Source: a virus (lineage: Duplodnaviria; Heunggongvirae; Uroviricota; Caudoviricetes). From it: a stretch of DNA of 7,321 nt. Positions 1-90 of this stretch are shown piece after piece (position 1 is the first letter of the stretch; each line of letters starts with the position of its first letter). The DNA lies in the IMG/VR virus record IMGVR_UViG_2645728091_000010, one strand, 5' to 3'. The notes beneath the pieces are model-generated. The model saw only the letters and a list, made by a program, of their open reading frames with translations. It ran no database searches and was not told where the DNA came from. The translations under genes were made by a program, and so were the position numbers.

Positions 1-1
1 C

Positions 2-79
2 ATGTGGGATGGCTGGTTCAGACTTCAGGATATGGTTGAGGGTTACCTGGTGATGAAGTCTCTTGATCAGGAGATCTGA
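2..79 (+). CDS. Transposase C-terminal fragment (IS50/Tn5-like); 5' part outside window
   Basis: Open frame from the window edge to TGA at 77-79. The W-D-G-W...L-Q...G-Y-L...K-x-L...I pattern parallels the Tn5 transposase C-terminus, recalled from memory and not searched. Confidence 0.45.
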   Translation: MWDGWFRLQDMVEGYLVMKSLDQEI

Positions 80-88
80 TCAAGAGAC
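58..88. repeat. Perfect palindrome, 12-bp arms (gtctcttgatca / tgatcaagagac) with 7-nt spacer; three GATC sites at 65-68, 73-76 and 78-81
   Basis: Direct reading of the sequence; overlaps the IS terminal repeat and the transposase stop codon. Confidence 0.85.
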
Positions 89-90
89 AG

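Follow-up and report, generated by a model that had tools for sequence, protein, structure and literature searches.

The replication gene pri of a helper-embedded PICI has very probably been interrupted by a simple insertion of ISEc13, which would have ended the self-driven replication of the satellite, and the contig would have been broken inside the repeated element. The window, i.e. the whole stretch of 7,321 nucleotides that was analysed, corresponded in reversed orientation to the complete 7321-bp short-read contig JHTG01000086.1 of the assembly GCA_001266375.1. It begins with catgtggg...gatcaggAGATCTGATCAAGAGACAG/gctactggtgg, where the slash marks the junction of the IS and the satellite after base 90. 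The features used in the analysis were as follows.

1-90, plus strand: right-hand 90 bp of ISEc13 (IS4 family, Tn5/IS50-like), identical at 90/90 positions; the contig ends inside the element.
2-79, plus strand: last 25 codons of the ISEc13 transposase and its TGA stop, with the translation MWDGWFRLQDMVEGYLVMKSLDQEI.
72-90, no strand assigned: 19-bp terminal inverted repeat of the right end, identical to the inside end of IS50.
91-98, no strand assigned: GCTACTGG, the target duplication on the right-hand side as predicted by the 8-bp rule of other ISEc13 copies; the second copy would lie outside the window.
91-884, minus strand: 5' part of pri, codons 1-265, with the N-terminal alpha/beta domain and most of D5_N (265/265 amino acids identical to N1420).
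18-884, minus strand: chimeric open reading frame of 288 amino acids, composed of pri residues 1-265 and 23 antisense-IS residues, as compared with the N1420 protein.
3117-3350, minus strand: intact AlpA excisionase/regulator gene (Pfam, PHROG; same length in N1420).
3352-4587, minus strand: intact integrase gene (Pfam, PHROG; same length in N1420).
4720-4995, minus strand: 5' fragment (91 amino acids) of the lambda-E-type major capsid gene of the surrounding lambdoid prophage, recognised by its Phage_cap_E match.

The visible 90 bp of the element aligned to the last 90 bp of ISEc13 without any difference from the reference (E 9e-38), and the full-size element in complete genomes was 1550 bp long. 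In NCBI records, the matched copies carry the annotation "IS4-like element ISEc13 family transposase". With bases 1-90 as the query, 2007 records contained a match over at least 80% of the 90 bases, the best match in 1087 E. coli records had at least 99% identity, and E2348/69 carries 30 copies of ISEc13. By this identity, bases 1-90 are the right terminus of a catalogued and very common insertion sequence. The copy of the junction at locus L004 showed one synonymous difference from the E2348/69 copy, just outside the window edge. The left end of ISEc13 reads CTGTCTCTTATACACAAAT, and this motif was absent from the window.

The terminal repeat at 72-90 (AGATCTGATCAAGAGACAG) is the exact reverse complement of CTGTCTCTTGATCAGATCT, the inside end of IS50, and the match was unique in the window with up to three mismatches allowed (0.01 expected by chance). 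GATC (Dam) sites start at positions 65, 73, and 78, and the TGA stop of the transposase, at 77-79, lies within the 19-bp repeat. The peptide MWDGWFRLQDMVEGYLVMKSLDQEI was identical to the end of WP_000244363.1, the 457-residue transposase of a full-size ISEc13 copy, and aligned with the C-terminus of the Tn5 transposase, ...LWEGWEALQSKLDGFLAAKDL..., in the dimerisation region; the alignment and the position of the stop agreed with the initial annotation, which had described this frame as a Tn5 transposase-like C-terminus with its stop inside the repeat. The full protein contained the Pfam domains Tnp_DNA_bind, DDE_Tnp_1, and Dimer_Tnp_Tn5, scored 511 bits against the NCBIfam model transpos_IS4_3, and matched the Tn5 transposase structures in the PDB with an E value of 7e-83.

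The gene interrupted by the element is the 5' part of pri. In N1420, the closest relative (98.7% identity), the intact gene encodes a protein of 583 amino acids annotated as a DUF5906 or DNA primase family protein, and the uninterrupted site reads ...ttttcccctGCTACTGGtggcgtg.... The open reading frame at 18-884 followed the N1420 protein over 265/265 residues to ...EYTPPVA and then diverged, which upheld the proposal that the primase-like frame changes at the IS end. The tail derived from the IS consisted of 23 codons (CLLIRSPDQETSSPGNPQPYPEV), one more than the 22 first counted. Alanine 265 is encoded by a hybrid codon, with GC from pri and C from the IS, by which the alanine was retained.

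The intact protein contained D5_N at residues 152-282, DUF5906 (an SF3 helicase) at residues 315-416, and a Pox_D5-type C-terminal domain, and the helicase P-loop motif GDGGSGKS starts at about residue 316, inside DUF5906. Its score against TIGR01613, "phage/plasmid primase, P4 family", was 104.2 bits, just below the cut-off of 108.7. In the truncated protein, the Pfam domain D5_N covered residues 152-263. A structure model of residues 1-264 (pLDDT 84) matched the primase-helicase structures of vaccinia D5, MPXV E5, and SaPI5 over about 125-185 aligned columns. With D5_N, the SF3 helicase, and the Pox_D5 C-terminal domain, pri shares the architecture of the C-terminal type found in D5, the SaPI5 Pri-Rep, and P4 alpha; unlike the primase-helicases of that type, it had no primase catalytic domain (Prim-Pol or Toprim) that profile and structure searches could recognise in residues 1-150. 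As judged from this domain arrangement, the truncated protein lacks the SF3 helicase P-loop as well as the C-terminal DNA-binding domain, and pri is no longer joined to the iteron origin downstream.

Gene content and integration site assign the host element to the helper-embedded PICIs of the 11capE type at the E:Phage_cap_E_80 site, a class and site published by Tommasini, Mageeney and Williams in 2023 (PMC10111431). The satellite genes on the minus strand of the window are the integrase, AlpA, several small open reading frames (an Icd-like or repressor-like protein among them), DUF4222, and pri, with int, alpA, and pri co-oriented. The prophage genes, also on the minus strand, are a portal fragment, an S49 protease, a decoration protein, and the 5' fragment of the capsid gene. 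This fragment abuts int, co-oriented with it, and thus marks integration inside a late gene of the prophage. Its translation ends with ...GYVKPKH and then becomes non-capsid, which placed the crossover of the satellite, located from protein translations, at about codon 82; a search for an att core by the longest common substring returned only a chance 11-mer. In N1420, the 3' part of the capsid gene (PKHEVNPQ...) was found on the far side of the satellite, followed by tail genes, and the satellite itself carried further on an SSB, its own capsid and decoration genes, a regulator, and a small terminase subunit.

The co-oriented int, alpA, and pri genes and the position in a lambda-E-type capsid gene at about codon 82 are those of the 11capE-type PICIs, and the SSB, the capsid and decoration genes, and the small terminase subunit of the type were seen in the intact relatives; the host element differs from the type in the interruption of pri by ISEc13. 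The integrase, AlpA, and the capsid fragment were found within 3117-5022, and at least 80% of the window was present in 72 complete E. coli genomes. Two open reading frames of the window run against the rest of the satellite, on the plus strand. The first, at 2132-2326, encodes a HicB/Arc-like ribbon-helix-helix protein of 64 amino acids, and the second, at 2351-3076, encodes a protein of 241 amino acids that had no match in Pfam, PHROG, or PADLOC and could have an accessory or defence role within the "dynamic zone" of the PICI.

Just past the stop codon of pri in N1420, outside the window, the motif GGTAGAyAAGGTAGATAAC occurs twice, 88 bp apart (positions 2924-2942 and 3012-3030 of the extracted N1420 locus). 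The pair probably represents the iterons of the satellite origin, and in the source genome these iterons would sit beyond the IS. PMC6092414 places the PICI origin downstream of pri, an arrangement like that of the two copies in N1420, and describes pri-ori, pri-delta-ori, and delta-pri-ori plasmids tested for maintenance.

A simple insertion would have proceeded as follows. By analogy with Tn5, the transposase would bind both 19-bp ends, and the element would be excised by cut-and-paste and inserted with staggered cuts, which for ISEc13 would leave an 8-bp target duplication. ISEc13 would have entered after nucleotide 794 of pri, in the orientation opposite to the gene, and the complete locus would read ...TTTTCCCCTGCTACTGG / CTGTCTCTTATACACAAAT ... 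1550 bp ... AGATCTGATCAAGAGACAG / GCTACTGGTGGCG.... The 288-residue product would keep the N-terminal and D5_N domains and lose the SF3 P-loop and the C-terminal DNA-binding domain, and the truncated pri would be parted from the iteron origin that lies just downstream in the intact relatives. The satellite would thereby lose its self-driven replication with its integrase and AlpA intact.

The strongest competitor of the simple insertion is recombination, deletion, or inversion mediated by the IS between ISEc13 copies, by which the 3' part of pri and the origin would have been deleted or placed elsewhere; we consider it unlikely. Some strains carry up to 30 copies of the element, and the ISEc13 copy of plasmid pMAR2, which has no target duplication, indicated that such rearrangements occur. 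For the source genome, the searches recovered neither a complete transposase gene nor the left end, the second copy of the duplication, or the 3' part of pri. In addition, the protein collection contained none of the exact C-terminal products predicted for a simple insertion: ten guessed far-side products, covering 8- and 9-bp duplications, GTG, M291, and M292 starts, and four alleles, all failed to match. These look-ups are weak evidence, however, as each of them needs an exact guess of the allele, the start codon, and the contig edge, and most of the ISEc13 copies inspected had clean duplications. Scans of genome and metagenome data for the pattern of the predicted left junction returned no match, and they were uninformative, since the right junction used as a control was equally unmatched. 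Two sets of sequences considered as the far side of the insertion were rejected. The homologue found with the C-terminal 317 amino acids as the query, on a contig of GCA_048608175.1, is a divergent allele from another sample and has no IS, and the C-terminal open reading frames of 293 amino acids belong to other genomes, with frameshifts or IS421 in place of ISEc13.

The duplication expected after a simple insertion was predicted from the flanks of ISEc13 copies at seven loci in complete genomes. Duplications of 8 bp were found at five independent sites (mog/satP, ybaY/MGMT, agp/yccJ, symE/DUF1127, and one degenerate copy), the ggt/yhhY site had a duplication of 11 bp, the pMAR2 copy had none, and a 9-bp duplication was observed in none of the copies inspected. 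Since ISEc13 copies elsewhere mostly leave 8 bp, the duplication at pri is probably GCTACTGG (91-98), and the 9-bp duplication gctactggt (GCTACTGGT) anticipated by the initial annotation is probably wrong. Tn5 leaves a target duplication of 9 bp, in contrast to the 8 bp of ISEc13.

The six ISEc13 copies with a duplication all sit at the tip of a strong GC-rich hairpin (-16 to -25 kcal/mol); these hairpins are likely terminators and appear to be located between convergent genes. In this choice of hairpin tips, the ISEc13 sites looked at are unlike those of Tn5. The site in pri lies in coding sequence with a fold of only -5 kcal/mol, and the insertion looks atypical for the element, a point that counts against the preferred reading. 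ISEc13 may normally insert at the tip of a terminator hairpin, by cuts staggered by 8 bp, and the insertion in the coding sequence of pri would then be off-target. None of the papers found to mention ISEc13 dealt with its target choice. The apparent preference for hairpin tips with 8-bp duplications is a by-product of the analysis that is perhaps worth a small follow-up.

The position of the junction was examined with the whole window as a megablast query in 5426 complete E. coli genomes. Many near-full-length matches were obtained, all of which began at query base 91, and with bases 1-400 as the query every satellite match again began at base 91. The match of intact relatives from this base and the identity of the preceding 90 bases to ISEc13 substantiated the proposed interruption of a primase-like gene by an IS. 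The junction of the IS and pri itself was absent from all 5426 complete genomes. Since the chimeric protein of 288 amino acids was recorded on only three contigs and the junction in no complete genome, the junction represents an event that is rare and specific to a lineage. A mosaic or recombination boundary at base 91 was also considered and rejected: the EC931 allele continued collinearly through this position without a break, and its 23 mismatches were scattered.

The presence of IS sequence at the extreme end of a short-read contig raised the question of an assembly artefact, in which 90 bp of the IS were misjoined to pri at the contig end. Assemblers break short-read contigs inside multi-copy repeats, which accounts for the location of the IS at the outer edge of the window; a contig end 90 bp inside the repeat is therefore the expected picture of a true insertion, and contigs that stop a read-length or a k-mer into a repeat fit the same picture. 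Moreover, the break coincided precisely with the final base of the terminal repeat of the IS. The chimeric gene was also present in the independent assembly GCA_001265845.1, on a contig of 2420 bp that extends 5 bases further into the IS, and the recurrence of the junction in a second assembly with another contig end argues against a misjoin. An artefact is thus very improbable.

The comparison with IS50 decided on the remaining origin of the 90 bases, i.e. a laboratory Tn5 or mini-Tn5 insertion instead of a natural IS. The reference was the inside end of IS50L next to aph(3')-IIa on plasmid pSTM6-275, which reads ...LMAQGIKI followed by the stop / GGGGATCAAGATCTGATCAAGAGACAG; the inside end of IS50L by aph(3')-IIa was matched with at least 99% identity in 222 plasmids. 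The last 19 bases of the pSTM6-275 copy were identical to the window, in accordance with the 19/19 match of 72-90 to the IS50/Tn5 inside end given in the initial annotation, and only 28/71 of the preceding bases were identical, which agrees with the view that the DNA to the left of the repeat is not IS50. The identity of the 19-bp end to that of Tn5 is all that speaks for a laboratory insertion; inside the end, the sequence agrees with ISEc13 at 100% of the 71 bases and with IS50 at only 28/71, and the probability of such an insertion is negligible.

ISEc13 and IS50/Tn5 share the 19-bp inside-end sequence, the two GATC sites, and the transposase stop inside the repeat. The left end of ISEc13, CTGTCTCTTATACACAAAT, was identical at 17/19 positions to the outside end of Tn5, CTGACTCTTATACACAAGT, as given in PMC2566895. 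The transposases are homologous and contain the same three Pfam domains, but the reading frame of IS50L shared only about 39% identity with the ISEc13 transposase, and the DNA just inside the end differed as described above. The description of the element as a diverged relative of IS50 was therefore correct, and the relative is a named element, ISEc13.

The least credible explanation, that the change of the C-terminus is native to the primase family, found no support: the 90%-identity cluster has 475 members with a representative of 583 amino acids (583 being the commonest length among the 15 members listed), the 288-residue form is confined to 3 contigs, and the DNA identity to intact genes stops at base 91; the proposed check on the native ending of intact homologues gave a protein of 583 amino acids with another C-terminus.

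With the simple insertion of ISEc13 as the preferred reading, the loss of pri should, from the domains removed, abolish the self-driven replication of the satellite. The genes int, alpA, and pri were cited as essential for the induction and transfer of PICIs, and the composite of helper and satellite was described to excise and replicate before the satellite excises, i.e. by passive replication (PMC10111431). Because a helper-embedded PICI is reported to be replicated passively with the prophage, the loss of pri need not immobilise the satellite. Amplification of the satellite and restoration of the helper capsid gene are perhaps not abolished, since int and alpA are intact. The initial annotation had called the element probably non-autonomous for replication; this is reasonable from the loss of the helicase and of origin binding, but passive replication by the helper (PMC10111431) means that the loss of autonomy is only partly implied. 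As helper-driven passive replication has been described for this class of satellites, the phenotypic consequence may be mild.

Other lesions of pri were noted in other genomes. At four loci, pri was interrupted at GGGGAATTTTCCCC by an end of IS421 (IS186-type), which lies some 70 nt upstream of the site used by ISEc13. Four further loci contained frameshifts by single-base changes in G runs, of which at least two were different. These sequences suggest that pri has been recurrently and independently inactivated, a second by-product that could merit a small follow-up. Separately, the contig of 968 bp of GCA_048608175.1 carried a divergent allele (89% amino acid identity) of the 3' half of pri, corresponding to pri nucleotides 798-1752; the first base of the contig lies 3 nt past the insertion point of ISEc13 and the last base 13 nt past the stop codon. 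The half of the gene that encodes the helicase and DNA-binding domains may be an exchangeable module, and its nearness to the IS site may be a coincidence.

The event in the window is an ordinary gene disruption, in which both the IS and the satellite class have already been described. It has little weight alone: the result is a correct annotation, in which a pseudogenised replication gene of a satellite borders a known IS end where the contig stops, and it illustrates that the contig ends of draft genomes are often sites of IS insertion. A broader proposal is that helper-embedded PICIs tolerate the loss of pri, which may even be favoured, since the composite has already been replicated by the helper prophage when the satellite leaves it; ISEc13 would then be one of several independent knock-outs and the satellite would still be mobile; we regard this as tentative and rather doubtful. 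The repeated inactivation of pri bears on whether helper-embedded satellites still need a replication of their own.
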